From NCBI GenBank assembly GCA_031278075.1, contig JAITLE010000170.1, forward strand, positions 1 to 41,733: a stretch of 41,733 nt of DNA, written 5' to 3'. A program made the translations under genes and the position numbers. The notes beneath the pieces are model-generated. The model was not told where the DNA came from, made no database searches, and saw only the letters and a list, made by a program, of their open reading frames with translations. Each line of letters begins with the position of its first letter. Position 1 is the stretch's first letter. This document shows, in pieces, positions 17,908 to 34,371 of this stretch. The stretch is from Bifidobacteriaceae bacterium (GTDB taxonomy: Bacteria; Actinomycetota; Actinomycetes; Actinomycetales; WQXJ01).

Positions 17908-18062
17908 GCGTGAACTTTAGGCGCCTCGGCGCACAACCAGGCTTCACGCCTGTTTCGCTGCGATGACGCGTCGGCCGAATTCGGGCGGTAGCATCGCGCT
18001 GTGACAAATCGCGCAGCCGCCGACGCCCGGGCGAGCGAAAGCCGAAGAATCAGGAGAGCCTC

Positions 18063-19527: not shown

Positions 19528-19532
19528 GCCGG

Positions 19533-20245: not shown

Positions 20246-20275
20246 TTCGATGACGGCTGATTCTTGCCCGGCCGC

Positions 20276-20455: not shown

Positions 20456-20496
20456 TAAACGGAGAAGTGCGACCCCGTCGGTTGATGCGGGGATGC

Positions 20497-20502
20497 TACG
20501 GT
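20497..20502 (+). promoter_or_regulatory. Candidate extended -10 (TGcTACGGT), 6 nt upstream of the vapB ATG (leaderless-type)
   Basis: The sequence is TGCTACGGTggggtgATG, and there is no SD. Confidence 0.4.
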
Positions 20503-20508
20503 GGGGTG

Positions 20509-20727
20509 ATGCGAACAACTCTGGATATCGATGATGGAGTGATGGCCGCGGCGCGCGCCAAAGCCGCGGCCGACGGCACTTCGCTGGGTCGGGCTGTCTC
20601 GGAGCTCGCCCGCGCCGGGCTGGATGGCGCGGCACGCCGCCAAGGCCGGTTCCCAGTCCTGTTCCCTGCTGTGGCCGGGCATGTCATCACGACTGAATTG
20701 GTCCTGGAACACGCGGAAGACCAGTGA
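20509..20727 (+). CDS. vapB: Type II antitoxin, VapB-like
   Basis: 72 aa beginning MRTTLDIDDGVMAAARAKAA, a typical VapB N-terminus. It is codon 61 of track ORF 20329..20727. Confidence 0.8.
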   Translation: MRTTLDIDDGVMAAARAKAAADGTSLGRAVSELARAGLDGAARRQGRFPVLFPAVAGHVITTELVLEHAEDQ

Positions 20728-21155
20728 CCAAGCCCGTCCTCCACCTCCTCGACGCCAACGCCCTCATCGCGCTCACCAACGCCTCGCACATCCATCACGG
20801 CCGCGTCGCCGACTGGTTCGACACGATCGACCGGTGGGCCACCACCCCGATCACCGAGGCCGCCTTCGTCAGGCTCATGCTTAATCCACTGGTGGCAGGC
20901 GCCCAGTTGACACGCGCGAACGTGGTCGAGGCGCTCGCCGCCATCAGGGACGCGGACAGGCACGAGTTCCTGCCCGACCAGTCCTCCCTGGCCGACCCGA
21001 GGATCGATCTCAGCGGGTTGCTGAGCTTTCGCCAAGTCGCCGACATGCATCTGGTCAACCTCGCGGCCGGGCACGGCGCCGTGCTCGCGACCTTGGACAA
21101 GCGGATCAGGGCCGCGCTCAAGGCCAGTGAGCAGCGCTGGGTTCATCTGATCTAG
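20724..21155 (+). CDS. vapC: PIN-domain ribonuclease toxin VapC
   Basis: There is a GTGA overlap with vapB. The acidic residues have PIN spacing (LLDANALI, PITEAAF, VADMHLV, LATLDK). Confidence 0.85.
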   Translation: MTKPVLHLLDANALIALTNASHIHHGRVADWFDTIDRWATTPITEAAFVRLMLNPLVAGAQLTRANVVEALAAIRDADRHEFLPDQSSLADPRIDLSGLLSFRQVADMHLVNLAAGHGAVLATLDKRIRAALKASEQRWVHLI

Positions 21156-22701
21156 CGCGAGCCGACGCCGCGAGCTCCTTGGCCGCGTACAGGTCGAAAC
21201 GTCCTGCGCTCGCGACTTTGACGAAGCCCCGGGCGTCCGCAGCCGCCTCTTCCCAATCAGATCCGCGCTCGACCCAGGCGGCGGCGGCCGTCTCCAGGCC
21301 GGCGGCCAGCAAACCGTCAACCGAATAGATCGGCATTCCCGCGCCCTCCGGCGCCGCCACTCCGGCGCTTCGCGCCAGATCCATCCCGTACGGGTCGACC
21401 CAGACCGGGCAGCCGGCGCGGATGTCGGCGTGGAGCGCGCCGGACAGGACCAGGCTCTGCGGGCGGTGGCTCCACACGCACGCGCCTTCCCACAGGCGCA
21501 GTTCCTCAAGCGCCTGGTGGGCGGTGGAGAACTGGTCGGGCACGGGCTCGCCCGCGAGCCGAGCCAGCGCGCACCAGCCCATGAACGGGGCCGCCGCCAA
21601 CGTGACGGCGCCGACCAGCGCGGTCGCCACGCGCCGTCGGCGACGCGCTGGGCGTCGGTCCCGCACCCAGCCCACCGCGTGCGCCGCGCCGAAGGCGATG
21701 GCGGGCGTCAGCCACACGAGGCTGTCATCCGACCTCACCGGATGGACCACCGCCTCACCCAATGCCGCGACTCCCCAGGCGAACCACATGACGATCGGCC
21801 TGTGATCGCCCCGCCGCCACGCCCGCCGCAGGATCTCGAACACGGCGACCGCGGCGCCCGCGACCACCACCGCCGTCAGCGCCTGCGGCACAAAGCCGAG
21901 CCCCGGCACGGTCACGTGCCACCGTTTCGGCCTGGCCGCCTGCGTCCAGAACACCATGCCCGCGAACGCGCCTGGCGCCCTCGCCGCGAACGGGAGCGTG
22001 GCCGCGAGCCAGATCGAGGCGGTCGCCCCGGCCGCCAGCCCGAACGCCTTGCGCCCCCGGCTGAGCAGGACGAACCCCAGGATCGCCACCGCGGGGCCGA
22101 TCGCGACGATCTTCACGGTCAACGCCCAGCCGACCAGCAGCCCGATGCCGACCGCCTGCGTCCGCGCCCGCCGCCTCGCCACCCCGGCGGGTCGCGAAGC
22201 CAACAGCCCCGCGGCGATCAACGCCGGGACGCACAGCGGCTCGAGCTGCAGTTGCCCATCGGTCAACACCTGCGGACACCAGAACGCGAACACGCCTCCT
22301 GCGACACACTGAGCAAGTCGGCCGCGGCCCCTGACCGCCCAGGTCACACCGACCGCAGCCAGGCAGCCGACCAGGTTGGCGATGACACGCCCGGTCAAGA
22401 CCGCGACCTCCGTGCCAGCCGCTCGGCCCAACCAAGCGATCGGCCAAAGCGCCCACACCATCCCGGGCGGGTGCGCCAAGGTGAAATCGACATACGGGAG
22501 CCGGCCCTCGAGCACCTCAGCGGCGGCCGCATAGTGCACCCATTCGTCGTAGGTCTGCGATCCGGTGAAGCGATCGCGGCTGAAGGCGAACGCGACGCGG
22601 ACCAAGGCCGCGCAGGCGAACACCGCCAAGTAGACCCACATGCCGCGCAGCCCGCGCAGGAACTCGGCGAGCCTCGCCGCGAGGCGCGTGTCAAGCGCCA
22701 C
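21118..22701 (-). CDS. Polytopic membrane protein, GT-C-fold glycosyl/mannosyltransferase-like, with a soluble C-terminal domain
   Basis: From GTG 22701 (ATG 22641 is an alternative) there are about 11 hydrophobic helices and a periplasmic-loop motif near the N-terminus (YDEWVHYAAAAEVLEGRLPYVDF). The upstream 262 aa of the track ORF overlap the kinase gene on the other strand and are junk. Confidence 0.65.
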   Translation of the reverse strand: MALDTRLAARLAEFLRGLRGMWVYLAVFACAALVRVAFAFSRDRFTGSQTYDEWVHYAAAAEVLEGRLPYVDFTLAHPPGMVWALWPIAWLGRAAGTEVAVLTGRVIANLVGCLAAVGVTWAVRGRGRLAQCVAGGVFAFWCPQVLTDGQLQLEPLCVPALIAAGLLASRPAGVARRRARTQAVGIGLLVGWALTVKIVAIGPAVAILGFVLLSRGRKAFGLAAGATASIWLAATLPFAARAPGAFAGMVFWTQAARPKRWHVTVPGLGFVPQALTAVVVAGAAVAVFEILRRAWRRGDHRPIVMWFAWGVAALGEAVVHPVRSDDSLVWLTPAIAFGAAHAVGWVRDRRPARRRRRVATALVGAVTLAAAPFMGWCALARLAGEPVPDQFSTAHQALEELRLWEGACVWSHRPQSLVLSGALHADIRAGCPVWVDPYGMDLARSAGVAAPEGAGMPIYSVDGLLAAGLETAAAAWVERGSDWEEAAADARGFVKVASAGRFDLYAAKELAASARARSDEPSAAHWP

Positions 22702-22878
22702 GGGGCTCGTTCTCAAGCCGCCCGCGGGCCAGCGCGCGGTCCCATCCCTCAGCCATCTCACAGATCGTAGCGGCTGCCCGCGGCAAGCCCGCGGCTGTGC
22801 GACCCGGGGAGGCGCCGACCGCGCCAACTTGGCCAAACGGCTCAGGCGCCCCGGCCGGCGGCGTCTTAACATGGCTAG

Positions 22879-24075
22879 ATGAGCGCCGACGCCGCCTCTC
22901 GGATGGGAGTGTTGGTGCGGATGTGTGAGGCGCTCAACTCCTCGGATGAGCGTTGGGAAGGTTTCGCGGAAGCGGTCCGCATCTTGCGGCGCGCCATGGG
23001 CGCCAAATGGGCGCCAAGCTTCCTGCTGGATGATTCTGGGGCGCGCGCGGTGCTGGTGACGGATCCCGACCAACGCGAGGTGATCGGAGAACGCTGGCCC
23101 TGGATCCCGGCGCGCGTCCACGTCCGCGACCCTTGGATCGACCCGGCAGGCCGGCCCGTGGCGGTGGCGGACAACCTGGACTCCGATGGTTGGCGCGTCG
23201 TGCCCGCCGAATTCAAGACCTGGTTCGACACGACCGGGGTGGTGGTCGCCGCCCACGCCCAAGGGCGCCACCTGGGCGCTGTGCTGATGACCTTCGGCGA
23301 GGAGATCCGGATCGACCCGGAGATGGGCGAGTTCTTGACCGCCGCCGGGCACATCCTCGGCCGTGCCGTCCACTCCGGGATCGTGGCGCGGCGCCAACAA
23401 GAACTCGGCGCGTTGAAGGAGCGGCGGGAGATGGCGGACGAGTTGCACGTGGACCTGGCCCAGCAAGTCGCGGCCCTCGGGTTGCACGCGGAGGCGGCCA
23501 ACCTGGATCTGGCTGAGGGCAACTCAGCGGCCCTGGCGGCGGACGTCCGCGCCGTGGGCGACATGGTCGCCACATTGAAGGTGGCGCTGCGGCACCAGAT
23601 GATGGGCCTGCGGGCGGAGGCCGCCGCCGCAGACGAAGGCTGTCTGGCCGGGATCGAGGCGCAAGCGGAGGCCTTCCGGCGCGTCGCGCCGGTCGCCCTG
23701 CATGTCGAATGCGCTGATCCGGAGCGCGCCCGGGATGTGCCCGCCGGTGTCAGCGCCCAGCTGATGCGCGTCCTCCAGGAGGCGCTGTCCAACGCCTGGA
23801 TCCATTCAGCGGCGGCCAACGTCCGCATCCGGCTGACGGCCGGGGACCGCCGCGCCCGCCTCGAGATCGAGGACGACGGCCGCGGCTTCGACCTGGCCAC
23901 GGTGCCAGACACTCGGCTGGGCACGGTCATCATGCGCGAGCGGATGGCCGCGGTCGGCGGGAACTTGGCCATCCATTCGGCGCCGGGACGCGGCACGCTG
24001 GTGGTGGCGGAGGCGCCGCTCCGCGTGACCGAGGGCTGGATCGCCTTGACGGAGCGGATCGGCATATTCGCGTGA
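22879..24075 (+). CDS. Cytoplasmic GAF-domain sensor histidine kinase (HisKA_3/NarX type)
   Basis: It has no TM segments. The N-terminal roughly 170 aa are GAF-like, the H-box is ADELHVDLAQQV, and the ATPase motifs are LQEALSNAWIHS, DDGRGFD and GRGTLV. Confidence 0.85.
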   Translation: MSADAASRMGVLVRMCEALNSSDERWEGFAEAVRILRRAMGAKWAPSFLLDDSGARAVLVTDPDQREVIGERWPWIPARVHVRDPWIDPAGRPVAVADNLDSDGWRVVPAEFKTWFDTTGVVVAAHAQGRHLGAVLMTFGEEIRIDPEMGEFLTAAGHILGRAVHSGIVARRQQELGALKERREMADELHVDLAQQVAALGLHAEAANLDLAEGNSAALAADVRAVGDMVATLKVALRHQMMGLRAEAAAADEGCLAGIEAQAEAFRRVAPVALHVECADPERARDVPAGVSAQLMRVLQEALSNAWIHSAAANVRIRLTAGDRRARLEIEDDGRGFDLATVPDTRLGTVIMRERMAAVGGNLAIHSAPGRGTLVVAEAPLRVTEGWIALTERIGIFA

Positions 24076-24797
24076 GACCGCCAGCAGCGACAAGAACGCC
24101 TCCCAAAGCGGCCGAAGGCGACCGCGGCGGGACGCGGCGGCCGACTCGCGTCCTGATCGTGGACGACCACCAGCTGTTCCGTGAGGGGCTGGCCGCCTTG
24201 ATGGCTCGTTGGCCAGAGTTCGTGGTCGTGGGCCAGGCCGCCGACGGGCGCGCGGCGGTCGAAGTGGCCCGCGAGCTGAGACCGGATCTCGTGCTGATGG
24301 ACGTCCGGATGCGTGGCCCAGGCGGCGTCGACGGGTTGGAGGCGACCCGCGCGGTCACCTCAGCCGACCCGGGCTGTCGGGTGGTGATGTTGACGATGTC
24401 AGCGTTGGGCGACGACGTCTTCCAAGCTCTCGCCAACGGCGCCCACGGCTATTTGTCCAAGGACGAACCCCCGCAACGTCTGCGCGCTTTCCTCGAAGCT
24501 GTGATGCGTGGCGAGGCGGCCCTGTCAGGGCCGATAGCGGCCAAAGTGTTGGCGTCCTTCGGACACTCCCCGACGCAGGGCGGGCCAGCCAGCCTGCCTG
24601 GCGAGTCGCTCACCCGGCGGGAACGGGACGTGCTCCGCCTCCTGGTGGACGGGCTGTCAAACGAGGAGATCGCCGAGCAACTGTTCATCACAGAGGCGAC
24701 GGTCAAGAAACACATCGGCCGTGTCATGGCCAAATGGCGGATGAAGAACCGCGTCCAGGTGGCCGTCTACTCGGTGCGCCAGGGCCTCGTCAACTGA
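24072..24797 (+). CDS. LuxR/NarL-family response regulator
   Basis: There is a GTGA overlap with the kinase gene. The receiver is VLIVDDHQLFREG...LVLMDVRM, and the HTH is LTRRERDVLRLLVDGLSNEEIAEQLFITEATVKKHI. Confidence 0.9.
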   Translation: MRPPAATRTPPKAAEGDRGGTRRPTRVLIVDDHQLFREGLAALMARWPEFVVVGQAADGRAAVEVARELRPDLVLMDVRMRGPGGVDGLEATRAVTSADPGCRVVMLTMSALGDDVFQALANGAHGYLSKDEPPQRLRAFLEAVMRGEAALSGPIAAKVLASFGHSPTQGGPASLPGESLTRRERDVLRLLVDGLSNEEIAEQLFITEATVKKHIGRVMAKWRMKNRVQVAVYSVRQGLVN

Positions 24798-24976
24798 GCT
24801 GGCGGCCCGCGCGGCTGGGTGACCGGACGGCATCGTGCACCCGGTGAGGGGCATACGAAAGTCGACCATGACGCCTATACGTTCGGCCCTTGGAAGTCCC
24901 GGAGAAGGCGGTCCAAACTGGGGCGAAACACCTGTGGGCGACAAGGTTGTCGCCTTCGCACACCCGGGAGGCAGCA

Positions 24977-25729
24977 ATGGCTGGCAGATTTGACGGAAAA
25001 ACCGTGTTGATAATTGGCGCGGCGACAGGCATCGGCAAGGCGGCGGCGCTGGCGTTCGCGCGAGAGGGCGCGAACTTGGTGCTCAGCGCCTACCGCACAC
25101 CGCCGGACGTGGTCGATGAGATCACCGCGGCTGGGGGCGTCGCCAGCGCGGTCAAGATGGATGTGAGCGACGAGGCGTCGGTCAAGAACGCGATCGCCAC
25201 CGTGGTGGAACGCCACGGCCGGCTCGACGTCGCCTTCAACAACGCCGGCTCGTTGCCGATGACGAAGCCGCTGGCGGACTTCACCGCGGAAGAATTCCAG
25301 CACACTCTGCGAGTGGACCTGATCGGGACGTTCCTGGCCATGAAGTATGAGATCCAGCAGATGCTGAAGGACGGCGGCGGCTCGATCATCAACACCGGAT
25401 CGGTCGTCTCTGTGGTGGCGGATCCGGGCATGGCGCCGTACGTCGCCGCCAAACACGGCGTGCTCGGCTTGAGCCGCGCCGCCGCCCTCGAATACGCCGA
25501 GCGGGGGATCCGCGTCAACACCCTGGCGCCAGGTCTGATCGAGACGCCGATGACGGCCCGCTGGCTCGCGGACCCCGCCTTCCGTGCCGTTGTGACCGGC
25601 CAGAACGCCGTGCGCCGCGTGGGCCGTCCGGAAGAGATCGCGGGAATCGTGCTGTACCTGGCCTCCGACGATGCCTCGTTCGCGACCGGGGGCGTGTTCG
25701 TGGTCGACGGCGGGCAGACGGCCCATTGA
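24977..25729 (+). CDS. SDR-family oxidoreductase
   Basis: ATG at 24977 follows GGGAGG. TGxxxGIG appears as GAATGIGKA, with NNAG and the catalytic YVAAK. Confidence 0.9.
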   Translation: MAGRFDGKTVLIIGAATGIGKAAALAFAREGANLVLSAYRTPPDVVDEITAAGGVASAVKMDVSDEASVKNAIATVVERHGRLDVAFNNAGSLPMTKPLADFTAEEFQHTLRVDLIGTFLAMKYEIQQMLKDGGGSIINTGSVVSVVADPGMAPYVAAKHGVLGLSRAAALEYAERGIRVNTLAPGLIETPMTARWLADPAFRAVVTGQNAVRRVGRPEEIAGIVLYLASDDASFATGGVFVVDGGQTAH

Positions 25730-25745
25730 GCGGCGGGCGCGGCCA

Positions 25746-26474
25746 GTGAGGACAATCGTCGTCTACAAGTGGGCGCGCGCCGCCGCCAGCGCCGTCGTCC
25801 GCCAGGGTGGGCAGGTCGATTGGGGTGGCGCCAGGCTCGCCGCCGGCGAGGACGATCCGGCCGCGTTGGCTGTGGCGCAGGCGTTGGCCACGCAGAGCGG
25901 CGATGTGGCTGGCCTGACGATCGGCGACGGCGAGACCGCGTGGGCTTTGGCCAGGGGCGCCGACGCCGCCCATGCCGTCCCCGCCCTCGGCCCGTTGACG
26001 GACAACGCGGCCACCGCGAAGGCCCTGGCCAGCGCGGTGCGGCAGATCGCGGCGAGCCAAGCGGTCGATGTGGTGGTGATCGGCGACGCGACGGCTGACC
26101 CGGGCGTGGCCGCGGCGCTCGCGGCCGAACTGGGTTGGCCGGCGTTGCTCGGCGTGACCTCGGCGGCGCCGGCGGGTGACCGTGTCACGGCTGCTCGTCG
26201 GGTCGGCAACGCGATCGAGACGGTGTCGCTGCCGACGCCGGCCGTGCTCGCGGTGGCGGCCGTCGGCGAGGAGGCCCGCGCCCCGGGGATGATGGAGCTG
26301 ATCAAAGCGCGCAAGAAGCCGGTGGCGCAGCTGACGGTCGAAGCCCCGGCGGAAGGCGTCTCGCAGCGGGCCACCCGCCTGCCCGCCGCGGCCGGCGCGC
26401 GGTTGTTCGAGGGTGACGCCGACACCGCCGCCCAGGCTTTGGTCGCGGCGCTGAGAGGGGATGGTTTGCTGTGA
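25746..26474 (+). CDS. fixA: Electron transfer flavoprotein beta-subunit-like protein (FixA-like)
   Basis: GTG at 25746 is codon 26 of the track ORF. The N-terminus is VRTIVVYKWA..., the length is about 242 aa, and a GTGA overlap couples it to the following ETF-alpha gene. It is divergent from canonical EtfB, so the assignment rests partly on context. Confidence 0.7.
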   Translation: MRTIVVYKWARAAASAVVRQGGQVDWGGARLAAGEDDPAALAVAQALATQSGDVAGLTIGDGETAWALARGADAAHAVPALGPLTDNAATAKALASAVRQIAASQAVDVVVIGDATADPGVAAALAAELGWPALLGVTSAAPAGDRVTAARRVGNAIETVSLPTPAVLAVAAVGEEARAPGMMELIKARKKPVAQLTVEAPAEGVSQRATRLPAAAGARLFEGDADTAAQALVAALRGDGLL

Positions 26475-27436
26475 GCGTCTGGGTGTTGGCGACCGACCCC
26501 GATCAGTTGGAGCCGCTGGTGGCGGCCGGGCGTCAGGCCGGCGTCGAAGTGGCCGTGGTGGCGGTTGGGTCCCGGGAGTTGGCTGAGGCGGCGGCGGTCA
26601 GCGGCGCGGACCAGGTGCGTTGGATCCAGACGCACGATGCCGTGCCGCCCGAGGCGTACGCGCCTCAAGTCGCGGCGTTGGCGCGCGGGGCTGGCGCCGG
26701 GGCGCGAGTCTGGCTCGCGGGGAACGCGCCCGCCGCCAGGGCGTTGCTTGGCGCCGCGGCGGTCGCGGCCGGGGCCGCCTTGGTGGGCGGGGGCTTGTCC
26801 CTGGCGTTCGAGGGCGGTGTGGTGGTGCTCGACCGCGTGATCTTGGCGGGCGCCGTGATCGAGACCTTGGAAGCGGCCGGGAAGCTGGCGGTGATCTGGG
26901 AGTCGAGTGGCGCGGGCGACGCGGTGGGCGGCGCGGTGGGAGGCGCGGTGGGCGTGCCGATCGAGGAGGTCTTGGCCGCCGCCGCGCCCGGCGCTGGCGC
27001 CGGCGGGCCGGCGCCGTGGGACATGCGGCGCGAGGCGACCCAGGTGGCGGCGACCGCGGCCGGCCTCGCGGACGCTCCCCGGGTGGTCGGTGTGGGCCGG
27101 GGCCTCAGATCCCGCGCCGATCTGGTGGTCGTGGAAGAACTGGCGCGGGCTCTCGGCGCGGAGATCGCGTGCTCCATGCCGTTGGCGGATGACCTCCATT
27201 GGTTCCCGGAGGAACGCTACATCGGCCGGTCGGGCCAAAAGATCGCGCCCCGCGTGTACCTGGCTCTCGGGATCGCCGGTGAGCCACAGCACATGGAGGG
27301 CGTGCGGAACGCGAAAGTGGTGGCGGCGGTCAACAACGACCCGGGCGCGACTGTGTTCCGTCACGCCACGTACGGCATCGTCGGCGATCTCTATGAAGTC
27401 GCGCCCGCGCTGACGCGGGCGCTCGAACACAACTGA
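26471..27436 (+). CDS. fixB: Electron transfer flavoprotein alpha subunit (FixB-like)
   Basis: The C-terminal FAD-binding region is VVGVGRGL...ELARALGAEIACSMPLADD..W.P.ERYIGRSGQKIAPRVYLALGIAGEPQHMEGV...VVAVNNDP. Confidence 0.85.
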   Translation: MSVWVLATDPDQLEPLVAAGRQAGVEVAVVAVGSRELAEAAAVSGADQVRWIQTHDAVPPEAYAPQVAALARGAGAGARVWLAGNAPAARALLGAAAVAAGAALVGGGLSLAFEGGVVVLDRVILAGAVIETLEAAGKLAVIWESSGAGDAVGGAVGGAVGVPIEEVLAAAAPGAGAGGPAPWDMRREATQVAATAAGLADAPRVVGVGRGLRSRADLVVVEELARALGAEIACSMPLADDLHWFPEERYIGRSGQKIAPRVYLALGIAGEPQHMEGVRNAKVVAAVNNDPGATVFRHATYGIVGDLYEVAPALTRALEHN

Positions 27437-27457
27437 CAACGCAAGGAGAAGCGAACT

Positions 27458-28939
27458 ATGGCAACATTCGACGTTGAATACGACCTGGTGGTGGTCGGGG
27501 GCGGAGGCTCCGGCAAGATGGCGGCCTACATTGGCGCCAAAGAAGGGGGCCTCGCGACCGCTCTGCTGGAGAAGGCCCCCGAGACGGGCGGCAGCTCGGT
27601 TTTCGCGGAGGGTCAGGCCGCATTCGAGTCCAGCGAGCAGCTGGCGCGCAAGACGCCGCCGACCCCCGGGATGCACTATCCCTCGCGCGCCGAGGGCTAC
27701 AAGCGTTACATCGACTACAGCCACAAGCGGGCCAACCCGGATGTGGTCCGGATGCAGGTCACCCACACCGCCGAGACCATCGACATCATGAAGTCGCTCG
27801 GGATCGTCTACACGGACGTCACGATCTACGCCTATGAGCAGCCGACCGAGCTGAACTCGTTCCACCGGCCGGACGGCCTCGGGGCCCACATGCAGGAGGT
27901 GCTGCTGCAGGCCACCGTCGACGCGGGCGTGGACATTTTCACTTCGACTCCGGCGAAGCAGTTGATCGTCGAAGACGGCAAGGTGGTCGGCGTGATCGCG
28001 GAGGACGCGGACGGCAAGACCATCCGGATCGGCGCCAAGGCGGTCGTCTTGGCGGGCGGCGGCTTCGGCGGCAACCTCGACATGGTGCGGGCGCATTCAC
28101 GCTTCGCGCGCAACGCGGACGCCTTGATCTACATGGGGCCGGAGCCGAACACCGGCGACACCATCAACATGGCCCTGGCGATCGGCGCCGACACGTGGGA
28201 GATGCAACCGCTCATGCTGGTGCCAGTGGCCAAGGACAAGAGCTTGGTGGCGCACATCAACGGCGGCGGCTCCCAGCCGGTGCTGTGGGTCAACAAGACG
28301 GGCCAGCGTTACTACGACGAGCACGTCGCCCTGAGCTTCGCGGACGCGGCCAACGTCATCGCCATCCAGCCGGGCGGCGCCTCCTACTCGATCATGGACC
28401 AGGCGACGGTTCAGCACCTGATCGACGACGGCAGCGACATCGGCCTGGGGGACTTCGTCAAGTACCACCTGCCGCTGACTGGTCTGCAAACCGAGTTGGA
28501 CGAGGCCGTCGCGGAAGGCGACATGGCTTGGAAGGCCGACTCGATCCCGGAGCTGGCCGAGGCGATCGGCTTGGATCCCGAGGTCTTCACGGCCACTGTG
28601 GCCCTCTACAACGAGTTCGCCGAGGACGGCGACGACCCGCTGTTCTACAAAGACGCGAAGTATCTGCGGCCCGTCAAGACGGCGCCGTTCTACGCCATCG
28701 AGATGCGGGCCGCCATCCTGGTCTCGGTGGGGGCGCTGCGCGTCAACGGCGATCTGCAGGTGATCGGCGTCGACGCCAAGCCGATCGAGGGCCTGTACGC
28801 CGTCGGCATGGACGCGGGCGGGCTGTTCGGCGACACCTACAACCTGGACGTGCCTGGCACCGCCAACGGCTTCGCGCACGCCAGCGGCCGGGTCGCGGCT
28901 CGTCACGCCATCGGGGCGATCAAAGCGGCGGCCGTCTGA
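27458..28939 (+). CDS. FAD-binding flavoprotein of the fumarate-reductase / 3-ketosteroid-dehydrogenase (FAD_binding_2) type
   Basis: AAGGAGA SD is present. The N-terminus is YDLVVVGGGGSGKMAA...LEKAPETGGSS and the C-terminus is GLYAVGMDAGGLFG. There is no signal peptide or TM segment. Confidence 0.85.
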   Translation: MATFDVEYDLVVVGGGGSGKMAAYIGAKEGGLATALLEKAPETGGSSVFAEGQAAFESSEQLARKTPPTPGMHYPSRAEGYKRYIDYSHKRANPDVVRMQVTHTAETIDIMKSLGIVYTDVTIYAYEQPTELNSFHRPDGLGAHMQEVLLQATVDAGVDIFTSTPAKQLIVEDGKVVGVIAEDADGKTIRIGAKAVVLAGGGFGGNLDMVRAHSRFARNADALIYMGPEPNTGDTINMALAIGADTWEMQPLMLVPVAKDKSLVAHINGGGSQPVLWVNKTGQRYYDEHVALSFADAANVIAIQPGGASYSIMDQATVQHLIDDGSDIGLGDFVKYHLPLTGLQTELDEAVAEGDMAWKADSIPELAEAIGLDPEVFTATVALYNEFAEDGDDPLFYKDAKYLRPVKTAPFYAIEMRAAILVSVGALRVNGDLQVIGVDAKPIEGLYAVGMDAGGLFGDTYNLDVPGTANGFAHASGRVAARHAIGAIKAAAV

Positions 28940-28982
28940 GCTGCTGGGCGAACTCGGACCGGGACTAGGCGGGGCCGCGGGC

Positions 28983-30293
28983 GTGGATGTCGACTTCGAC
29001 GTGATCGTGGTCGGCGCGGGCGTGGCCGGCTGTGTGGCAGCCCACCAGCTGGCCACGGCCGGGCGCTCTGTTCTGTTGGTGGAACGGGGCGCCCAGGTCG
29101 GCGACAAGGCGCTGTCTGGCGGGGTGCTCTACTGCCGGGTGATGGAGCAGATCTTCCCGGGATTCCTGGAGCGGGCGCCGGTGGAGCGCGCCATCACCCG
29201 CAACTGTTTGAGCTTCATGAACTCGGACAGCTTCGTCAACATCGACTACGCCGACGACCGCCTGGGCGCCCCGGTCAACGCGGTCTCGGTGCTGCGCGCC
29301 AAACTCGACGCTTGGCTGGGCGAACAGTGCGAGGCGGCCGGCGCCATGGTGATGCCCGGCGTGTTGGTGGACCGGCTGTTGCTGGAGGGCGGCAGGGTCC
29401 TCGGTGTGGGGGCCGGCGAGGACGAGTTGCGCTGTCACGTGGTCGTGGCCGCCGATGGCGTCAACTCGTTCGTCGCCCGCGACGCGGGCCTGCGTGACCC
29501 GGATCCACCCCGCCACCTGGCGCTCGGCGTGAAGTCTGTGATCGCCCTGGACCGCTCGACAATTGAGGCGCGGTTCAACCTGCCGGCGGCCGGCGGCGCG
29601 GGCGGCCTGGCCGAGGGCGCCGCCTACGCCGTAGTCGGCGACTGCACCAAAGGTGTCGGCGGCGGGGGTTTCATGTACACCAATTTGGAGTCGGTCTCGA
29701 TTGGGTTGGTGCTGCGTTTGGACGATCTGGCGCGCAGCGGCGAGACCGCATCTGATCTGCATGACCGCTTCTTGGACCACCGCCGTGTGGCGCCGTTCCT
29801 CGAAGGCGGCGAGCTGTTGGAATACGGCGCGCACCTGGTCGCGGAGGGCGGCGCCGCGATGGTCCGCGGCTTGGTGGCGCCGGGTCTGGTGCTGGTCGGG
29901 GAGGCCGCCGGCCTAGCGCTCAACACAGGGTTGACGGTGCGCGGCATGGATCTGGCGGCGGGCTCGGCGCTCGCGGCCGCCAAGTGCGTCGACGCCGCAT
30001 TGGCTGCGGGAGACTGCTCGGCGGCTGGTCTCGCCTCCTATGAGGCCGCCCTGCGGGCCAGCTTCGTCGGACGCGACATCGAGACCTACCGGCGGGCGCC
30101 GGCGTTCTTGGAGGGCACGCGGATGTTCAACGATTACGGCCCGCTGCTGGCAGATGTCTTCCACGGTGTCTACAACCTGGATTTGTCCCCGCGGCGGCGG
30201 CTGGTCAAGACGGCCCGCGCCGCGGTGAAGGCGTCGCCGGTCAGATTGGTGGACTTGGCGCGCGACGCCTGGGCGGCGATGAGGGCGTTGTGA
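28983..30293 (+). CDS. fixC: FixC-type FAD-dependent oxidoreductase (ETF-quinone oxidoreductase-like)
   Basis: FDVIVVGAGVAGCVAA...LLVERG...GDKALSGGVLY...VVAADGVNSF is a typical FixC pattern. Confidence 0.85.
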   Translation: MDVDFDVIVVGAGVAGCVAAHQLATAGRSVLLVERGAQVGDKALSGGVLYCRVMEQIFPGFLERAPVERAITRNCLSFMNSDSFVNIDYADDRLGAPVNAVSVLRAKLDAWLGEQCEAAGAMVMPGVLVDRLLLEGGRVLGVGAGEDELRCHVVVAADGVNSFVARDAGLRDPDPPRHLALGVKSVIALDRSTIEARFNLPAAGGAGGLAEGAAYAVVGDCTKGVGGGGFMYTNLESVSIGLVLRLDDLARSGETASDLHDRFLDHRRVAPFLEGGELLEYGAHLVAEGGAAMVRGLVAPGLVLVGEAAGLALNTGLTVRGMDLAAGSALAAAKCVDAALAAGDCSAAGLASYEAALRASFVGRDIETYRRAPAFLEGTRMFNDYGPLLADVFHGVYNLDLSPRRRLVKTARAAVKASPVRLVDLARDAWAAMRAL

Positions 30294-30297
30294 TCAC

Positions 30298-30582
30298 ATG
30301 AGACTTGGCAGCATCCCGGAGCGTTTGTCCCGCGACCGCCACAACCTTGGCGCCGCATCACACATCGAGGTGGACCAGGCCGCTGCGCGGCGGTTGGGCG
30401 CAGGCCCCCTGCTCGAGCGCATTTGCCCGGCCCACGTCTACACCCAGGGCCCGGACGGCGCCATCCGGATCAACTGGGCGGCCTGCCTCGAATGCGGGAC
30501 ATGCCTGGCGTTGGCGCCACCGGGTGTCTTGACCTGGCGCTATCCGGCTGGCGGCGCCGGCATCGCCTACCGCCACGGCTGA
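30298..30582 (+). CDS. fixX: FixX ferredoxin-like protein
   Basis: 94 aa with CPAHVY...CLECGTC. It starts 4 nt after the fixC stop. Confidence 0.85.
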   Translation: MRLGSIPERLSRDRHNLGAASHIEVDQAAARRLGAGPLLERICPAHVYTQGPDGAIRINWAACLECGTCLALAPPGVLTWRYPAGGAGIAYRHG

Positions 30583-30620
30583 GCGCGGACGCCAGCCCCG
30601 AGGCCCGCCCGTCCCAGCCG

Positions 30621-30844
30621 ACGGCTGGAGCGGCGACGGTTTGTCCAAGTATTTTGGGGCGAGCGTGCCGGAGGGCGCGACTTCGGTGACGGAGCAAGAC
30701 GCGAGCATGGAGATCATGAAGGCCTTCGGCGAGATGGCGCAACGACCGGGCTACGATCCCGCGCAGAACCATGCCTTTGAGTGCCTTGACATTCACCGGC
30801 TGCTTTGGCCGGAGGAGACACCCTTGGAGCCTTACCCCTCCTAG
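30621..30844 (+). pseudogene. Truncated duplicate of the 3' part of the downstream lipoprotein gene, carrying an in-frame 162-bp deletion
   Basis: nt 30621-30710 equal 31353-31442, and 30711-30818 equal 31605-31712. The segment missing from this copy (31443-31604) is bracketed by the 8-nt microhomology GAGCATGG. This copy has no 5' half or signal peptide. Confidence 0.75.
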
Positions 30845-31087
30845 GGCTTTTTACGCTTGTGAATGTTAGCGTTCACCTAGTACGCTCTGAGGAGCCGCGG
30901 CGCCCCCCGGGCGCGGTTCCGGCGTCAAGAAAGGGCGTGCGCTGTGCGAGTCAAAGGTTTCTTGAGGGGAAGGATGATCGTCGCGGTCAGCGTGTTCACG
31001 CTGCTGTTGGGAGGGGGTTGGCGCGGTCAACGCGCCGTCTGCGGACGCGGCGCCGCCGAACGGCCACACAGCTGGAGTGGCTCTGAC

Positions 31088-31732
31088 ATGTTGATCCCGG
31101 GGCGCCCTGGGCTGCGGAGAGGTTCGTGTGAGCGGCGACTGGGTTCGGGGGGACTCGGGTCGGCTGGTCGGCGTGCGAGCGCGGCACTGTTCGGGTGGGT
31201 GGCTTTGGCCGCGGCGATGTTCGTGGGGGGGTGCTCGGGGGAGCAGCAGGTGGATCCGTTGGATGACGGGATTGTGACTCAGGCGGAGTATGACGCGGCG
31301 GTTGCGGCCACTCAGAGATGCATCGTGGACAAGGGATTCGTCTCTGACGGCTACGGCTGGAGCGGCGACGGTTTGTCCAAGTATTTTGGGGCGAGCGTGC
31401 CGGAGGGCGCGACTTCGGTGACGGAGCAAGACGCGAGCATGGCGCACGCCGAGTGTGCCGCGGAGTATCTGTCTCAGGTTGAGAGGCAGTGGTTGTTGGA
31501 TAATGTGCCTGAGGGCGCCGAGCGTGACGCGATGTGGGAGAGCCTGATCCAGTGTCTGGCTGAGAATGGTTTGCCGGGTTTCACACCTGGCGTCCCGAGC
31601 ATGGAGATCATGAAGGCCTTCGGCGAGATGGCGCAACGACCGGGCTACGATCCCGCGCAGAACCATGCCTTTGAGTGCCTTGACATTCACCGGCTGCTTT
31701 GGCCGGAGGAGATCCCGTTGGAGCCCTACTGA
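31088..31732 (+). CDS. Four-cysteine secreted lipoprotein of unknown function
   Basis: The lipobox is AAMFVGGC, preceded by RRASAALFGWVALA. The start is uncertain (ATG 31088 chosen; the track start 30944 and ATG 30974 are in frame). The mature part has Cys in the contexts QRC, AEC, IQC and FEC. Confidence 0.7.
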   Translation: MLIPGRPGLRRGSCERRLGSGGLGSAGRRASAALFGWVALAAAMFVGGCSGEQQVDPLDDGIVTQAEYDAAVAATQRCIVDKGFVSDGYGWSGDGLSKYFGASVPEGATSVTEQDASMAHAECAAEYLSQVERQWLLDNVPEGAERDAMWESLIQCLAENGLPGFTPGVPSMEIMKAFGEMAQRPGYDPAQNHAFECLDIHRLLWPEEIPLEPY

Positions 31733-31794
31733 TGCCGCGTGGTGGGACGGGTCTCCTCACGGGTGTTAGTGTTCACCGCTAATATTGCGTTAGG

Positions 31795-31926
31795 CAAGTT
31801 GTCGATGGCTTGATCTTTGGGGCGGACTCGCGCGGCGGTCTTGGTCCATTTGAGCGGGTGACAGTCTTTGTTGTGGTGGTCGACGAGCCGCCTGAGCGTC
31901 TGGTTGAGCTGTCGGACGATTTGGGA
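31795..31926 (-). mobile_element. C-terminal remnant of a DDE transposase (IS630-like tail)
   Basis: My own translation gives ISQIVRQLNQTLRRLVDHHNKDCHPLKWTKTAARVRPK. The xxFxWT-type tail is recalled from IS630-family transposases. No N-terminal part is present, and local GC is lower than the surroundings. Confidence 0.45.
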
Positions 31927-31972
31927 TATATCACATAAACGGTGTCCAGCCAGCCAGCATGGCGACGTCGGG

Positions 31973-32071
31973 GCCGACGAGCGCCATCGTCTCTTTGAGG
32001 GTGGCGCCGGCTATCTGGGGCCAGATTAGGGCGGTGTGGCGCAGGTCGTGGAGGCGGAAGCCGGGGCGACC
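31973..32071 (-). mobile_element. Tyrosine recombinase (phage-type integrase) fragment abutting the tmRNA 3' end
   Basis: GRPGFRLHDLRHTALIWPQIAGATLKETMALVG contains the box II HxLRHT motif. The N-terminal roughly 250 aa and the catalytic Tyr region are missing. Confidence 0.6.
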
Positions 32072-32084
32072 CACCCCCGAGATG

Positions 32085-32448
32085 TGGAGCTGGGGGGAAT
32101 TGAACCCCCGTCCGAGAACCAAAGCACAGGTCTTCTCCGGGCGCAGCCAACGAGCGGTTTTCTCAGCCCCGGCGCTGTTGCTGGCGACGCGCCGCCGGGC
32201 TCAGTTGTCTAGAAGTCCCCGTCCGCCGGACAACACAGCGGACGAGCAGTGGGCTGCTTCACGACGCCAAATCCCAAGCCGCAGCCATTCTTGGGTTGAC
32301 GGGCAAACCTCTCGCCTCAGGCGGCGAGGGTGTAGCCGGTGCGGTTAGATTTCGCACTTATTGTTCACGTGGAGCGTTTACGAGATAACCACGTCTCCTC
32401 GGCCCGCTTCTCCTGAGTCGACGATCCCCGTCGAAACCGATCAGCCCC
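32085..32448 (-). ncRNA. ssrA: tmRNA (SsrA)
   Basis: The 5' end is GGGGCTGATCGGTTTCGACGGGG and the 3' end is GGACGGGGGTTCAATTCCCCCCAGCTCCA. The acceptor stem has the G3:U alanine identity pair. The internal tag ORF at 32355..32317, gcg aaa tct aac cgc acc ggc tac acc ctc gcc gcc tga, encodes AKSNRTGYTLAA. Only the first C of the CCA end is encoded. Confidence 0.92.
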
Positions 32449-32492
32449 TCTGTTTAGTTGTTCCGACCAGTGTAACGCCTCCGCCGACCGCG

Positions 32493-33068
32493 CTATTCCC
32501 GCCCGCCGCCGGCGGGCGGCCCATCCCCGGCGGGCAGGGTCTGCCCGGGGTAGACCTCATCTTCGTCGTGCCACACCTCGAGGGTCACGCCCGCGCCGGC
32601 GAACAGGTCCCTCGATTGCTGGGCGGCGTGGTAGCGCCGCAACGCCACGACCCGCTCGACGCCCGCGCTGATCAGCAGCATCGCACAAGTGGCGCACGGC
32701 TCCATGGTGCAATAGCACGTGGTGCCGGCCAGCGGCAGCCCGTACCTGGCGGCCTGGGCCAGGGCGTTCTGCTCAGCGTGGACGGTGCGCACACAATGGG
32801 TCCGCAGCGACCCGTCGTCTTCGACGACCTTGCGCCACAGGTGGCCCGCCTGGTCGCAGTGTTCCAGACCCGGCGGGGAGCCGACATACCCGGAGCAGAT
32901 GATCCGGTGGTCGCGCACCACGATGGCGCCGGAGCGCCCCCTGTCGCACGTCGCCCGGCCGGCCACCAGCGGGACCAATTGGACGAAGTATTCGTCCCAG
33001 CTAGGGCGGCGCCCACCCTGGTCGTTGGTGAGGGGATCGAAAGCGCCGGGAACACTCAAATCTGGCAT
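32493..33068 (-). CDS. Deoxycytidylate (dCMP) deaminase, ComEB-like
   Basis: The zinc motifs HAEQNA and PCATCA are present, and the N-terminus SWDEYFV is typical of dCMP deaminases. Confidence 0.85.
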   Translation of the reverse strand: MPDLSVPGAFDPLTNDQGGRRPSWDEYFVQLVPLVAGRATCDRGRSGAIVVRDHRIICSGYVGSPPGLEHCDQAGHLWRKVVEDDGSLRTHCVRTVHAEQNALAQAARYGLPLAGTTCYCTMEPCATCAMLLISAGVERVVALRRYHAAQQSRDLFAGAGVTLEVWHDEDEVYPGQTLPAGDGPPAGGGRE

Positions 33069-33111: not shown

Positions 33112-34371
33112 TCAGCGCCCGGGTTCTGGGCGGACCAAGCGGATGTCCCGGCCCGCCGCCCAGGCGCCGATGTCGTCTCGACGCAGAGCGACCGCCATCA
33201 GATCCGGGAACTGATCCGGGGTGCAGGCGAACACCGGCACGCCAAGAGCGGCGACCTTGGCGGCGGTGTCCGCCGAATAACCCGGATTGCCCTGGTCGGT
33301 GAGCGCCACGAGCACCACCACGTTGACACCGACCCGCGTCAACGCCGAGAGACGCCTCAACAGCTGCGTCTCATCGCCGCCCTCGTACAGATCGGTCAAC
33401 AGGATCAGGTGCGCCTTCGTCGGCTGGTCGATCAGCTCCGCGCAGTAGGCCACGGCCTGGTTGATGTCGGTGCCGCCGCCCAACTGGATCCCGAACAGGA
33501 CCTCCACCGGGTCCGCGAGCTGGTCGGTCAAGTCAACCACCGACGTGTCGAAGCACACCAAGTTGGTCGCGACCGCGGGCAGCGCCGCCATCACCGCCGA
33601 GAAAATGGACGCGTAGACGACCGACGAGGCCATCGACCCCGATTGGTCGACGCACATCACAACCCGGTCCAGGTCCGCCGCGCGTTTTTGCCGCCGGGCG
33701 AATCCGACCAGCGTCTCCGGGACCACCGCGGCGTAGGCGGGCTGGTAGTGCCGCAGATTGGCGGTGATTGTCCGATGCCAGTCGATGTCCCTCGGCCTGG
33801 GGCGGCGGGTTCGCCTGGACCTGTCCCGCACGCCACGCACCGCCTCGGCCATTCTCAGCTCGAGGCGTTCCATCAGCGCTTGGACCACATCGGCGACGAC
33901 CGCCCGCGCCGCGTCCTTGGCCTTCGCGGGCATCGCCCGCCCCAGCGCCATCAGATCCGCGACCAGGTTGACGTCGCGCTCCACCGATTCGAGGACCTCA
34001 GGCTGGAGCAGCATCTCAGTCAGGCCGAGCCGGTCGAGCGCGTCGCGTTGCACAACTTGGACGACCCCCCGCGGGAAGAACTCCCGCAGGTCGTCGAGCC
34101 AGGCCGCCAACGCGCGGGGCGACGACTTCCCCAGACCGCCCCGGCGCCGCTTGTCTTGAGGCGCCGCACGATGCCGACCGCCTGGGTCCGCGCCCCCGTC
34201 CGGCGCCTGCCCGTACACCGCGTCCAACGCCGCCGAGAGGCGCCCGTCCCTGGCGTCGAGGCCCTCGCCTAGGCCCAGCGCAAGACTCCACCGCCGTTCG
34301 GCGAGGTCTTTCTCGTCGAGCGCGTCGTCGAGGAACGCGGCGGCCCCGTCCTCGCGTCCAGGATCACACAT
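33112..34371 (-). CDS. vWA-domain protein with a complete MIDAS (last gene of the SWIM/AAA+/vWA operon)
   Basis: ATG at 34371 overlaps the upstream stop (ATGTGTGA). The MIDAS residues are DQSGSM, GGGTDI and LLTDLYEGG. The N-terminal roughly 230 aa are helical and unassigned. Confidence 0.85.
   Translation of the reverse strand: MCDPGREDGAAAFLDDALDEKDLAERRWSLALGLGEGLDARDGRLSAALDAVYGQAPDGGADPGGRHRAAPQDKRRRGGLGKSSPRALAAWLDDLREFFPRGVVQVVQRDALDRLGLTEMLLQPEVLESVERDVNLVADLMALGRAMPAKAKDAARAVVADVVQALMERLELRMAEAVRGVRDRSRRTRRPRPRDIDWHRTITANLRHYQPAYAAVVPETLVGFARRQKRAADLDRVVMCVDQSGSMASSVVYASIFSAVMAALPAVATNLVCFDTSVVDLTDQLADPVEVLFGIQLGGGTDINQAVAYCAELIDQPTKAHLILLTDLYEGGDETQLLRRLSALTRVGVNVVVLVALTDQGNPGYSADTAAKVAALGVPVFACTPDQFPDLMAVALRRDDIGAWAAGRDIRLVRPEPGR

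Follow-up and report, generated by a model that had tools for sequence, protein, structure and literature searches.

A regulator-linked ETF/FixCX cassette around a THDR-family flavoprotein, putatively for reduction of a small aromatic compound, in an anaerobic actinobacterium

Introduction

What does a FixABCX-like electron transfer system serve when a substrate-specific flavoprotein is encoded in its middle? Such a locus lies in the window (the whole stretch of DNA analysed, 41,733 nucleotides from a Bifidobacteriaceae bacterium), and a sequence-only reading had proposed that the ETF is dedicated to reduction or desaturation of a C=C bond by this flavoprotein, with an SDR handling an adjacent hydroxyl or keto step. 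Our main reading, to which we give a probability of about 0.5, is that the locus is a self-contained, regulator-controlled operon for the reductive transformation of a small aromatic compound, probably plant derived. A menaquinol- or NADH-fed FixCX-ETF set would reduce the flavoprotein, which would carry out a reduction like that of tetrahydrodaidzein reductase (THDR) on an alcohol that the SDR supplies.

Results and Discussion

Gene content and spacing of the locus

Domain content was assigned from Pfam and NCBIfam profiles, and all genes of the locus are on the + strand. A sensor histidine kinase gene (22879..24075; HATPase_c E 2e-13) is followed by that of a NarL/LuxR-type response regulator (24072..24797; Response_reg E 3e-24, GerE E 4e-21), which overlaps the kinase stop by 4 nt. 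After a gap of 179 nt comes a classical SDR, the first gene of the cassette (24977..25729; adh_short_C2 E 2e-64), and 16 nt further on the ETF small subunit EtfB/FixA, of the Fix/Ydi type (25746..26474; PF01012 E 2e-12). A GTGA overlap of 4 nt joins it to the large subunit EtfA/FixB (26471..27436), which carries the electron-transfer FAD domain (ETF_alpha, PF00766 E 9e-26). The 493-aa FAD_binding_2 flavoprotein of the THDR family (27458..28939; FAD_binding_2 E 1e-46) is encoded 21 nt downstream of EtfA; 43 nt separate it from a FixC-type ETF:quinone oxidoreductase-like flavoprotein with an ETFQO_UQ-bd domain (28983..30293), and another 4 nt lead to a FixX-type ferredoxin-like protein (30298..30582; Fer4_ETF_QO E 3e-7, FixX model E 8e-13).

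Profiles and coordinates bear out the gene content and order described earlier from the letters, and the last four spacings (from the EtfB/EtfA overlap onwards) match exactly. The starts chosen then, ATG 24977 for the SDR and GTG 25746 for EtfB (VRTIVVYKW), are those common to the homologues, the latter by alignment of the family. Longer ATG/TTG open reading frames are upstream extensions, with the homologue-shared starts lying downstream. No terminator-like site was found between 24797 and 30582. The flavoprotein has a dinucleotide-binding fold at its very N terminus and no signal peptide, consistent with the cytoplasmic location first assigned to it.

The gene order is a conserved cassette

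The window order is a conserved, patchily spread cassette across unrelated hosts. In all, 14 fully readable loci, drawn from several phyla, have the order EtfB-EtfA-flavoprotein-FixC-FixX, with carriers in Desulfosporosinus, Sodalis, Martelella, Robertmurraya, Holophaga, Adlercreutzia and termite-gut MAGs. The hosts are mostly anaerobes, and most are strict anaerobes or fermenters. The SDR belongs to the unit in 10 of 13 cassette loci, in keeping with the proposal that it is tied to the flavoenzyme step, and is absent from three (L005, L009 and L139). It is 85% identical to its counterpart in the nearest relative, a termite-gut MAG (L006), and 53–58% identical to the same-position SDRs of Desulfosporosinus, Sodalis, Robertmurraya, Martelella and Holophaga.

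The genome is 95.9% complete, and in it EtfA is the only match to PF00766, so no other ETF is encoded; FixC is also present as a single copy, and a search of the same genome for an acyl-CoA dehydrogenase found none. In a complex model run with controls, the flavoprotein is predicted to dock on the EtfB recognition loop, PGMMELIKARKK (residues 180–191), with a score of 0.69 compared with 0.40 for the best control; 58 of 80 solved complexes and 2 of 110 mismatched pairs reach this mark. The runs share at least 72% of contacts, partner pLDDT is at least 89, and the modelled interface covers EtfB residues 178–186, including M182, which aligns with the recognition-loop Leu of human ETF-beta. The model is a prediction from shallow alignments, which we count as a caveat on the main reading. 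As had been supposed, the ETF appears to serve this flavoenzyme specifically, given the conserved order, the sole ETF and FixC, the lack of an acyl-CoA dehydrogenase and the modelled docking.

The flavoprotein belongs to the THDR family

The relatives first named for comparison (fumarate, urocanate and enoate reductases and KstD) miss the closest one. A full-length alignment of the flavoprotein with THDR of Eggerthella sp. YY7918 gives 49% identity (E 3e-159), and in the tree the two fall in one family (SH-aLRT 98), apart from VprA and other paralogues; the THDR clade itself has 100* support, and the window flavoprotein forms part of a separate sub-lineage. The next characterised relative is VprA of Lactiplantibacillus plantarum (NF053717), also a cytoplasmic FAD_binding_2 reductase, which acts on a p-hydroxybenzylic position. 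VprA is the best-scoring NCBIfam model and matches at full length, but its 320 bits are about half of the 600-bit cut-off, the VprA-like clade is only ~33% identical and set off by a long branch, and no ETF/FixCX linkage was seen for it in this analysis.

We know of no solved structure for the THDR family. The closest solved structures by sequence are soluble fumarate reductase/flavocytochrome c3 (1D4D, 1QJD) and the urocanate reductase UrdA (6T85), with profile E values of 9e-51 and 2e-42. The FAD-binding fold is retained, as is the catalytic acid Arg402 (here R284), but the substrate-carboxylate ligands His365, His504 and Arg545 are replaced by V255, L421 and D464, and the window flavoprotein has no haem or FMN-binding domain. 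THDR likewise has R284, is hydrophobic at both His positions and carries an acid in place of Arg545, with M and E where the window has L421 and D464. At pocket residues 255–257, THDR has A-A-G, most cassette members I-P-C and the window V-P-V, so the chemistry may differ from that of THDR.

By analogy with THDR, the likely chemistry is reductive removal of a benzylic oxygen, to which the 49% identity points ahead of the plain C=C reduction or desaturation first proposed. Analogous chemistry is described for Ber, a fumarate-reductase homologue of the Eggerthella lenta lignan pathway that is paired with a LuxR-family regulator and reductively cleaves a p-hydroxybenzylic C-O bond (bioRxiv 10.1101/357640). 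By description, the Ber gene suffices on its own in E. coli, and no ETF/FixCX genes are reported beside it, whereas the window flavoprotein has such genes as neighbours.

In an alternative close to the original proposal, the flavoprotein would be a plain ene-reductase, fed by the ETF and acting on a vinylphenol-, cinnamate- or enone-like C=C bond with no dehydroxylation, and the SDR would act on a separate keto or hydroxy group. The family does lie within the soluble fumarate-reductase superfamily with the catalytic R284 kept, VprA is a vinylphenol reductase, and the three loci without an SDR suggest that the flavoprotein step can stand alone. We nevertheless consider this quite improbable, because THDR is much closer to the flavoprotein than any ene-reductase, the carboxylate-binding His/His/Arg are all replaced and the SDR, where it is kept (10 of 13 loci), sits directly upstream in the unit.

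Comparison with the equol operon

The placement of a flavoenzyme gene between fixB and fixC had been thought non-canonical, but the equol operon is a precedent, built from the same parts around a THDR-family flavoprotein. In Eggerthella sp. YY7918, Adlercreutzia equolifaciens and Slackia, these parts are a racemase, EtfB, EtfA, THDR (tdr), dihydrodaidzein reductase (DHDR, ddr), daidzein reductase (DZNR, dzr), FixC and FixX. Their order is EtfB-EtfA-THDR-SDR-(DZNR)-FixC-FixX, and in A. equolifaciens daidzein induces the ETF genes along with tdr and ddr, 100- to 10,000-fold (PMC6566806). Five accessory parts are shared with the window, the SDR, EtfB (39% identity), EtfA (37%), FixC (40%) and FixX (33%); in both, EtfB-EtfA lies directly 5' of the flavoprotein gene, a LuxR/NarL-type regulator adjoins the cluster and the ETF is of a type without group-2 motifs. 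To our knowledge, no study has characterised ETF/FixCX from the equol operon.

The likeness to a known, characterised operon extends to the parts but not to their order: the window SDR precedes the ETF genes, whereas the equol SDR follows THDR, and in the window FixCX comes directly after the flavoprotein. These differences bear on whether the locus could be a true equol or isoflavone pathway, with the flavoprotein as tetrahydrodaidzein reductase and the SDR as DHDR. The 49% identity to THDR and the accessory parts would suit such a pathway, but we regard it as extremely improbable. A search of the genome for a DZNR-type daidzein reductase found only a 33% match to the OYE half, the cassette has no racemase, and the SDR, at 32% identity, is no orthologue of DHDR. 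The sub-lineage and pocket positions of the flavoprotein also differ from those of the THDR clade, and window-type cassettes occur in anaerobes from the environment and from termite guts, across several phyla (sulfate reducers, syntrophs, and bacteria of wood and the rhizosphere among them), rather than in human-gut Eggerthellaceae.

The electron transfer proteins and the direction of electron flow

In sequence, ETF/FixCX belongs to the Fix/Ydi type of E. coli. The cai-linked FixABCX and YdiQRST of E. coli provide the top NCBIfam models for all four subunits, although all scores are under the equivalog cut-offs (for FixC, PRK10015 391 bits and FixC 333 bits). EtfB is 26% identical to YdiQ, EtfA 33% to YdiR, and FixC 44% to YdiS and 41% to FixC; the four Cys of FixX (43, 63, 66 and 69) are at positions identical in E. 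coli FixX. The EtfB N terminus, previously called unusually divergent, follows a pattern common to the whole cassette family, and E. coli FixA and YdiQ begin similarly (MKIITCYKC and MKIITCFKL) and share the recognition loop. These E. coli ETF/ETF-QO-like sets feed the reductases CaiA and YdiO, and their four genes, like those of the window, adjoin a substrate-specific reductase. The E. coli client is an acyl-CoA dehydrogenase encoded elsewhere, whereas the window client has the FAD_binding_2 (fumarate-reductase) fold and is encoded between fixB and fixC, with no CoA-ligase or CoA-transferase genes in the window. Walt and Kahn (2002), as cited in PMC12482172, found fixAB to be required for anaerobic carnitine reduction.

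In bifurcating (group-2) ETFs, the small subunit has the conserved motifs RxGV and GxxSPTxV, and the large subunit has RPxFGG (PMC10734219). Neither of the former was found in EtfB nor the latter in EtfA, and no cassette ETF has any of the three, nor does E. coli FixAB/YdiQR. A PDB search placed the ETF subunits nearest, weakly, to the non-bifurcating Paracoccus ETF. Both results make it very unlikely that the locus encodes a bifurcating complex, in which NADH electrons would be split between the high-potential substrate of the flavoprotein (or quinone) and ferredoxin, as in Bcd-Etf, CarCDE or nif-type FixABCX, even though the locus encodes four Fix-like subunits, bifurcation is common in anaerobes such as these hosts, and an equol-like locus (L135) has a second ETF and NfnAB-like genes nearby.

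The usual direction of electrons, from ETF to ETF-QO, is oxidative, which counts against the main reading. An oxidative catabolic module would keep this direction: the SDR would oxidise a hydroxyl to a ketone, a KstD/TcuA/ChcC-like flavoprotein would desaturate or dehydrogenate its substrate, and electrons would pass from ETF through FixX/FixC to menaquinone. Weaker matches of the flavoprotein to TcuA (164 bits), KstD (157 bits) and ChcC desaturases, and of the SDR to ChcB2 (196 bits, under cut-off), are consistent with such a module, as are the MenA encoded in the genome and the ability of some carriers (Martelella, Sodalis and Robertmurraya) to respire. We consider it possible but unlikely: both nearest characterised relatives, THDR (49%) and the VprA clade (~33%), are reductases, ETF/FixCX belongs with the E. 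coli sets that supply reductases, strict anaerobes or fermenters make up most of the carriers, and the KstD-type and TcuA matches are far under their cut-offs.

Proposed mechanism and regulation

Gene content, family membership, cassette conservation and the single ETF of the genome are direct findings; for the preferred reductive operon, we infer the kind of substrate, its conversion and the way electrons run as follows. The SDR would reduce a keto group to a benzylic alcohol, and the flavoprotein, by homology, would remove the alcohol oxygen or reduce a derived quinone-methide or alkene, in parallel to the formation of equol from tetrahydrodaidzein by THDR. The dedicated ETF, docking through the EtfB recognition loop as modelled, would re-reduce the FAD of the flavoprotein, and would itself be supplied via FixX/FixC by NADH or the menaquinol pool, with electrons running as they do to CaiA and YdiO from the Fix/Ydi-type sets of E. 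coli. The nearness of ETF/FixCX to YdiQRST/FixABCX, the presence of MenA and the mostly anaerobic hosts count for this reading. Counted against it are the low identity of the SDR to DHDR, the three loci lacking an SDR, the differing pocket at 255–257, the absence from the window of a transporter or upstream pathway enzyme that could give a substrate clue, and the dispute in the literature over the THDR mechanism. Recombinant THDR alone behaves as a cofactor-free dismutase (PMC11572103), as one would foresee for a flavoenzyme cut off from its electron donor, and this counts for the reading.

The GAF-like kinase and NarL-type regulator would activate the operon in response to its substrate. The NarL/LuxR-type regulator is a candidate regulator of the operon, as the sequence-only reading proposed for the pair, and both genes accompany the cassette in L006, where a kinase in the equivalent position is 65% identical and the regulator 78%; the equol clusters are flanked by related LuxR/RR genes. 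The top NCBIfam model for the regulator is NarL (170 bits, under cut-off). The kinase is cytoplasmic, of the NarX/NarQ-like HisKA_3 type with a GAF-like N-terminal domain, and has NarQ/MctS-type NCBIfam matches over residues 150–380. Its earlier description as a GAF kinase stands in part: Pfam found no GAF domain in it, even at E 0.1, but an ESM Atlas look-up gave a feature score of 0.95, with the ten best named matches all GAF, and structural TM values of 0.71–0.84, and we therefore treat the domain as a supported lead with no profile match.

Gene layout of the cassette and its regulators

The window as a whole has a G+C content of approximately 70%. Eight + strand genes span 22879–30582 and encode, in order, a histidine kinase, a NarL-type response regulator, a classical SDR, EtfB, EtfA, an FAD_binding_2 flavoprotein of 493 amino acids (27458–28939), FixC and FixX. 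Pfam and NCBIfam domain content agrees with the sequence-only reading of this DNA, and the gene list, order and spacings that it gave for the cassette (24977–30582, SDR to FixX) were confirmed by domain matches and coordinates. By alignment with homologues, the SDR begins at ATG 24977 and EtfB at GTG 25746. The regulator is separated from the SDR by 179 nt and the SDR from EtfB by 16 nt; EtfB and EtfA overlap by 4 nt, and the gaps before the flavoprotein, FixC and FixX are 21, 43 and 4 nt, respectively. No terminator-like sites were found inside the unit running from regulator to FixX. The N terminus of EtfB had been described as unusually divergent, but it is typical of the cassette family and of E. 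coli FixA and YdiQ. The kinase had been called a GAF kinase. Its N-terminal sensor region gave no Pfam GAF match at E-values up to 0.1, and the domain is supported by an Atlas look-up only (GAF feature score of 0.95; GAF in all 10 of the 10 best named matches; structural TM scores of 0.71–0.84 to GAF clusters).

The flavoprotein is a member of the THDR family

The flavoprotein shares 49% identity over 489 residues (E = 3e-159) with tetrahydrodaidzein reductase (THDR) from Eggerthella sp. YY7918 (BAK44716.1). A search of Eggerthellaceae genomes returned a tier of approximately 50% identical proteins, one of them letter-identical to the characterized THDR; outside the THDR family, identity to the flavoprotein is 36% or less. 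In a quick-search tree with support given by SH-aLRT only, a 34-row family of window-type proteins plus the THDR clade split from VprA-like and other paralogues with a support of 98. The THDR clade itself (support 100) is one of approximately seven sub-lineages in the family, the order of which the tree leaves unsettled.

The putative active site fits this placement: R284, E288, R428, N470, F472, H474 and R478 are common to the flavoprotein and THDR, and the catalytic arginine is kept. Among solved structures, flavocytochrome c3 fumarate reductases and urocanate reductase come closest, and the pocket was compared with the Fcc3/Frd-type fumarate reductase site (His365, Arg402, His504 and Arg545, Shewanella numbering). 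Arg402 is retained as R284, whereas His365, His504 and Arg545 are replaced by V255, L421 and D464. THDR has A, M and E at the same three positions, a similar pattern, and judged from sequence the flavoprotein pocket resembles that of THDR. Because these carboxylate ligands are replaced, the flavoprotein should not bind a dicarboxylate, and identity as a soluble fumarate reductase, for which one of four active-site residues is kept, was rejected. The best NCBIfam model was that for the vinylphenol reductase VprA (NF053717), but its score of 320.3 bits lies under the curated cut-off of 600, and identity as VprA was also rejected. Plain ene-reduction by the flavoprotein is a less likely reading of its function than the reductive removal of a benzylic oxygen considered below. 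The source genome (95.9% complete) has a single member of this protein family.

The electron-transfer set is of the YdiQRST/FixABCX type

All four FixABCX-type subunits are present by Pfam and NCBIfam: a small ETF, a large ETF with an FAD domain, a FixC flavoprotein and a four-cysteine FixX. NCBIfam and direct comparisons alike place them nearest to YdiQRST and the cai-linked FixABCX of E. coli. Identity is 44% between FixC and YdiS, 41% between FixC and its E. coli namesake and 33% between EtfA and YdiR, and the four cysteines of FixX (43, 63, 66 and 69) are positioned exactly as in the E. coli protein. All four nevertheless score under the NCBIfam FixA/B/C/X / YdiQ/R/S/T equivalog cut-offs (52.9 versus 338, 149 versus 528, 391 versus 466 and 48 versus 166 bits).

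A bifurcating complex would share this subunit composition. In group-2 (bifurcating) ETFs, nif-type FixAB included, the small subunit is reported to conserve RxGV and GxxSPTxV, and the large subunit RPxFGG (PMC10734219). Classified by these published motif descriptions, the window ETF fails the tested signature of bifurcating ETFs: all three motifs are absent, as they are from eight other cassette or equol ETFs and from E. coli FixAB and YdiQR, and only the arginine of RPxFGG is kept. Bifurcation is therefore the less likely mode.

The E. coli YdiQRST/FixABCX-type sets serve reductases, and fixAB is needed for anaerobic carnitine reduction in E. coli (Walt & Kahn 2002, as cited in PMC12482172). 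The main rival to a reductive role runs the window cassette in the opposite direction, as a dehydrogenation feeding menaquinone. MenA is present in the source genome, which makes a quinone pool likely.

Apparent dedication of the ETF to the flavoprotein

The ETF_alpha domain and the FixC of the cassette are the sole copies in the genome, and a search for acyl-CoA dehydrogenase domains found none; in this genome, the ETF is without any other conceivable client. A complex of the flavoprotein with EtfB and the EtfA FAD domain, predicted from shallow alignments that we built ourselves, scored 0.69 compared with 0.40 for the best of three controls. Of 80 solved complexes, 58 reached this mark, as did 2 of 110 mismatched pairs. 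At least 72% of contacts were shared between runs, and the pLDDT of the partners was 89 or higher. The modelled interface is centred on EtfB residues 178–186, which correspond to the recognition loop, with M182 at the position of the anchoring leucine in a HMMER alignment to human ETF-beta. On the flavoprotein side, it is predicted to involve residues 5–6, 147–164 and 181–189. The model, itself a prediction, supports binding.

The cassette is conserved across phyla

All loci with sufficient flanking sequence have the identical order EtfB-EtfA-flavoprotein-FixC-FixX. The carriers are Desulfosporosinus fructosivorans, Sodalis sp. dw_96, Martelella alba, Robertmurraya sp. 2P01SA, a Holophaga MAG and Adlercreutzia sp. 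ZJ154, together with an Actinomycetales MAG, two long metagenome contigs and five relatives of the window's own lineage. In 10 of 13 loci, the SDR is the first gene of the unit. Across phyla, identity is 60–66% for the flavoprotein and approximately 40% for the ETF subunits. Closer to the window, 6 of 10 genomes from the same genus carry the flavoprotein gene, as do both genomes from a second genus in the family; a search of 42 genomes representing 23 other families of the order found no copy. Such patchiness is consistent with horizontal spread of the cassette. A termite-gut Gracilibacteraceae MAG (L007:508–3514, +) carries two tandem flavoprotein genes, 66% and 53% identical to that of the window, before fixCX.

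Regulators vary by lineage. The kinase/regulator pair is found in the window and in its nearest relative, a termite-gut MAG; elsewhere there is a sigma-54 PAS activator, a LysR protein or a 459-amino-acid protein without a family, which has no counterpart in the window. Proteins of this last type, 458–462 amino acids long and without a Pfam family, lie divergent to the cassette in four loci (L003:5187–6566, L137:4407–5786, L138:4500–5888 and L140:4344–5720, all on the − strand). They are 68–81% identical among Sodalis, Martelella, Holophaga and the L140 locus, and may be the cassette regulator there.

The cassette shares parts with the equol operon

The equol locus of Eggerthella sp. YY7918 encodes a LuxR-type regulator, a racemase, EtfB, EtfA, THDR, the SDR dihydrodaidzein reductase (DHDR), a 180-amino-acid ORF, daidzein reductase (DZNR), FixC, FixX and a GltD/NuoF-like protein; it and the window operon have shared parts in a different order. 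An equol-type set is also present in a sister clade from another organism (L135). That locus (L135:3826–17653), on gut-metagenome contigs, has an equol-like run of DZNR-like protein, regulator, racemase, EtfBA, THDR-like protein, SDR and FixCX, followed by a second EtfBA and NfnAB-like genes.

Could the window operon be a true equol pathway? The equol-type loci L126 and L135 carry both DZNR and the racemase, whereas the window cassette has neither: no glyoxalase-type racemase was found in it, and a search of the source genome for DZNR (OYE plus Pyr_redox_2, approximately 644 amino acids) returned only a 33% match to the OYE half. The window SDR is 32% identical to DHDR. With no DZNR-type protein and an SDR this distant from DHDR, the window operon is not considered an equol pathway, which makes this the less likely explanation for the shared parts.

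In Adlercreutzia equolifaciens, daidzein induces both ETF genes along with tdr and ddr, although their role is conjectural (PMC6566806); that study goes no further than stating that the ETF 'might participate' in equol formation, and our literature search on ETF or FixCX in this process found nothing beyond this suggestion. A search for an operon with the window's gene order found no description, and the kinship of the cassette to the equol operon appears undiscussed in the literature searched. The operon is best described as a THDR-family enzyme with a proposed ETF/FixCX donor, detached from isoflavone metabolism.

Proposed route and significance

From the observed parts, family membership, conserved linkage and uniqueness of the ETF in its genome, a reductive sequence can be proposed. 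The SDR would convert a ketone to a benzylic alcohol, and the flavoprotein would strip that benzylic oxygen or reduce a derived quinone methide, analogous to THDR acting on tetrahydrodaidzein, VprA on vinylphenols and the fumarate-reductase homologue Ber (Eggerthella lenta benzyl ether reductase) on benzyl ethers. The ETF would then re-reduce the flavoprotein, and FixCX may link the ETF to menaquinol or NADH. A PDB search with the SDR gave generic aryl-ketone and alcohol SDRs as best matches, including 4URE, too unspecific for a substrate hint. Carriers come from termite gut, fen, decaying wood, rhizosphere and anaerobic enrichments, which suggests a lignin- or flavonoid-derived phenolic as the substrate.

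More broadly, we hypothesize, with a probability of only about 0.3, that the cassette gives anaerobes a widespread, horizontally mobile means of using p-hydroxyaryl ketones or alcohols of plant origin as electron sinks (C=O to CH-OH to CH2), that equol formation in the human gut is one specialized offshoot of it, and that ETF-FixCX is the long-missing physiological donor of THDR. The THDR step creates equol, and the literature is unsettled on its mechanism and donor, treating the enzyme as a radical enzyme, a dismutase or a reductase. Recombinant THDR alone is a cofactor-free dismutase (PMC11572103); if ETF-FixCX is the donor, this in vitro behaviour would be accounted for, being what is expected of a flavoenzyme deprived of electrons from its donor. 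In the loci examined, THDR-family genes are nearly always tied to FixCX and an ETF of the Fix/Ydi type, in several phyla and beyond the gut. Given this family-wide linkage and the lack of another ETF client in the source genome, the donor question is directly testable, and experiments are feasible because cultured carriers exist (D. fructosivorans, Robertmurraya sp. 2P01SA, Sodalis sp. dw_96, M. alba and Adlercreutzia sp. ZJ154). The proposed route points to plant phenolics being reduced by an uncharacterized reaction in termite guts, peat, decaying wood and sediments.

Surroundings of the cassette

A complete tmRNA gene (ssrA; 32082–32448, −; 140.8 bits, model positions 1–374) lies downstream, with its 3' end facing the cassette 1.5 kb beyond fixX. 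A genomic island at the tmRNA was considered but is not supported: the 3' end of the tmRNA has no direct repeat of at least 14 nt within 15000–33000, and no integrase was seen. Just past fixX, a 215-nt block (30621–30835) is repeated with 97–100% identity at 31353–31442 and 31596–31729, this second copy lying approximately 0.8 kb downstream and interrupted by approximately 150 nt. The stretch has a lower G+C content (0.65) and ORFs without a Pfam match, and the repeat may reflect a duplication, a small mobile element or an artefact of assembly.

Pfam likewise gave no match for the ORFs of 21118–22879 and 30600–32400. The 1.7 kb between a PIN-domain gene and the kinase (21155–22879) contains overlapping long ORFs of 446 (+) and 789 (−) amino acids with high third-position G+C. 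The PIN-domain (VapC-like) gene (20724–21155, +) and a small ORF upstream of it (within 20329–21155), with a faint VapB match (E = 0.04), are probably a toxin-antitoxin pair. Further upstream (18063–19527, +), a DsbA-like thioredoxin-fold gene precedes one of the VKOR (vitamin K epoxide reductase) family, the two forming a quinone-linked disulfide-bond system, and a 157-amino-acid ORF (19533–20006, −) containing only a partial mannitol dehydrogenase C-terminal domain is possibly a gene remnant. On the far side of the tmRNA, a VWA CoxE-like gene adjoins a DUF5682 gene (644 bits) at 33112–36484 on the − strand.
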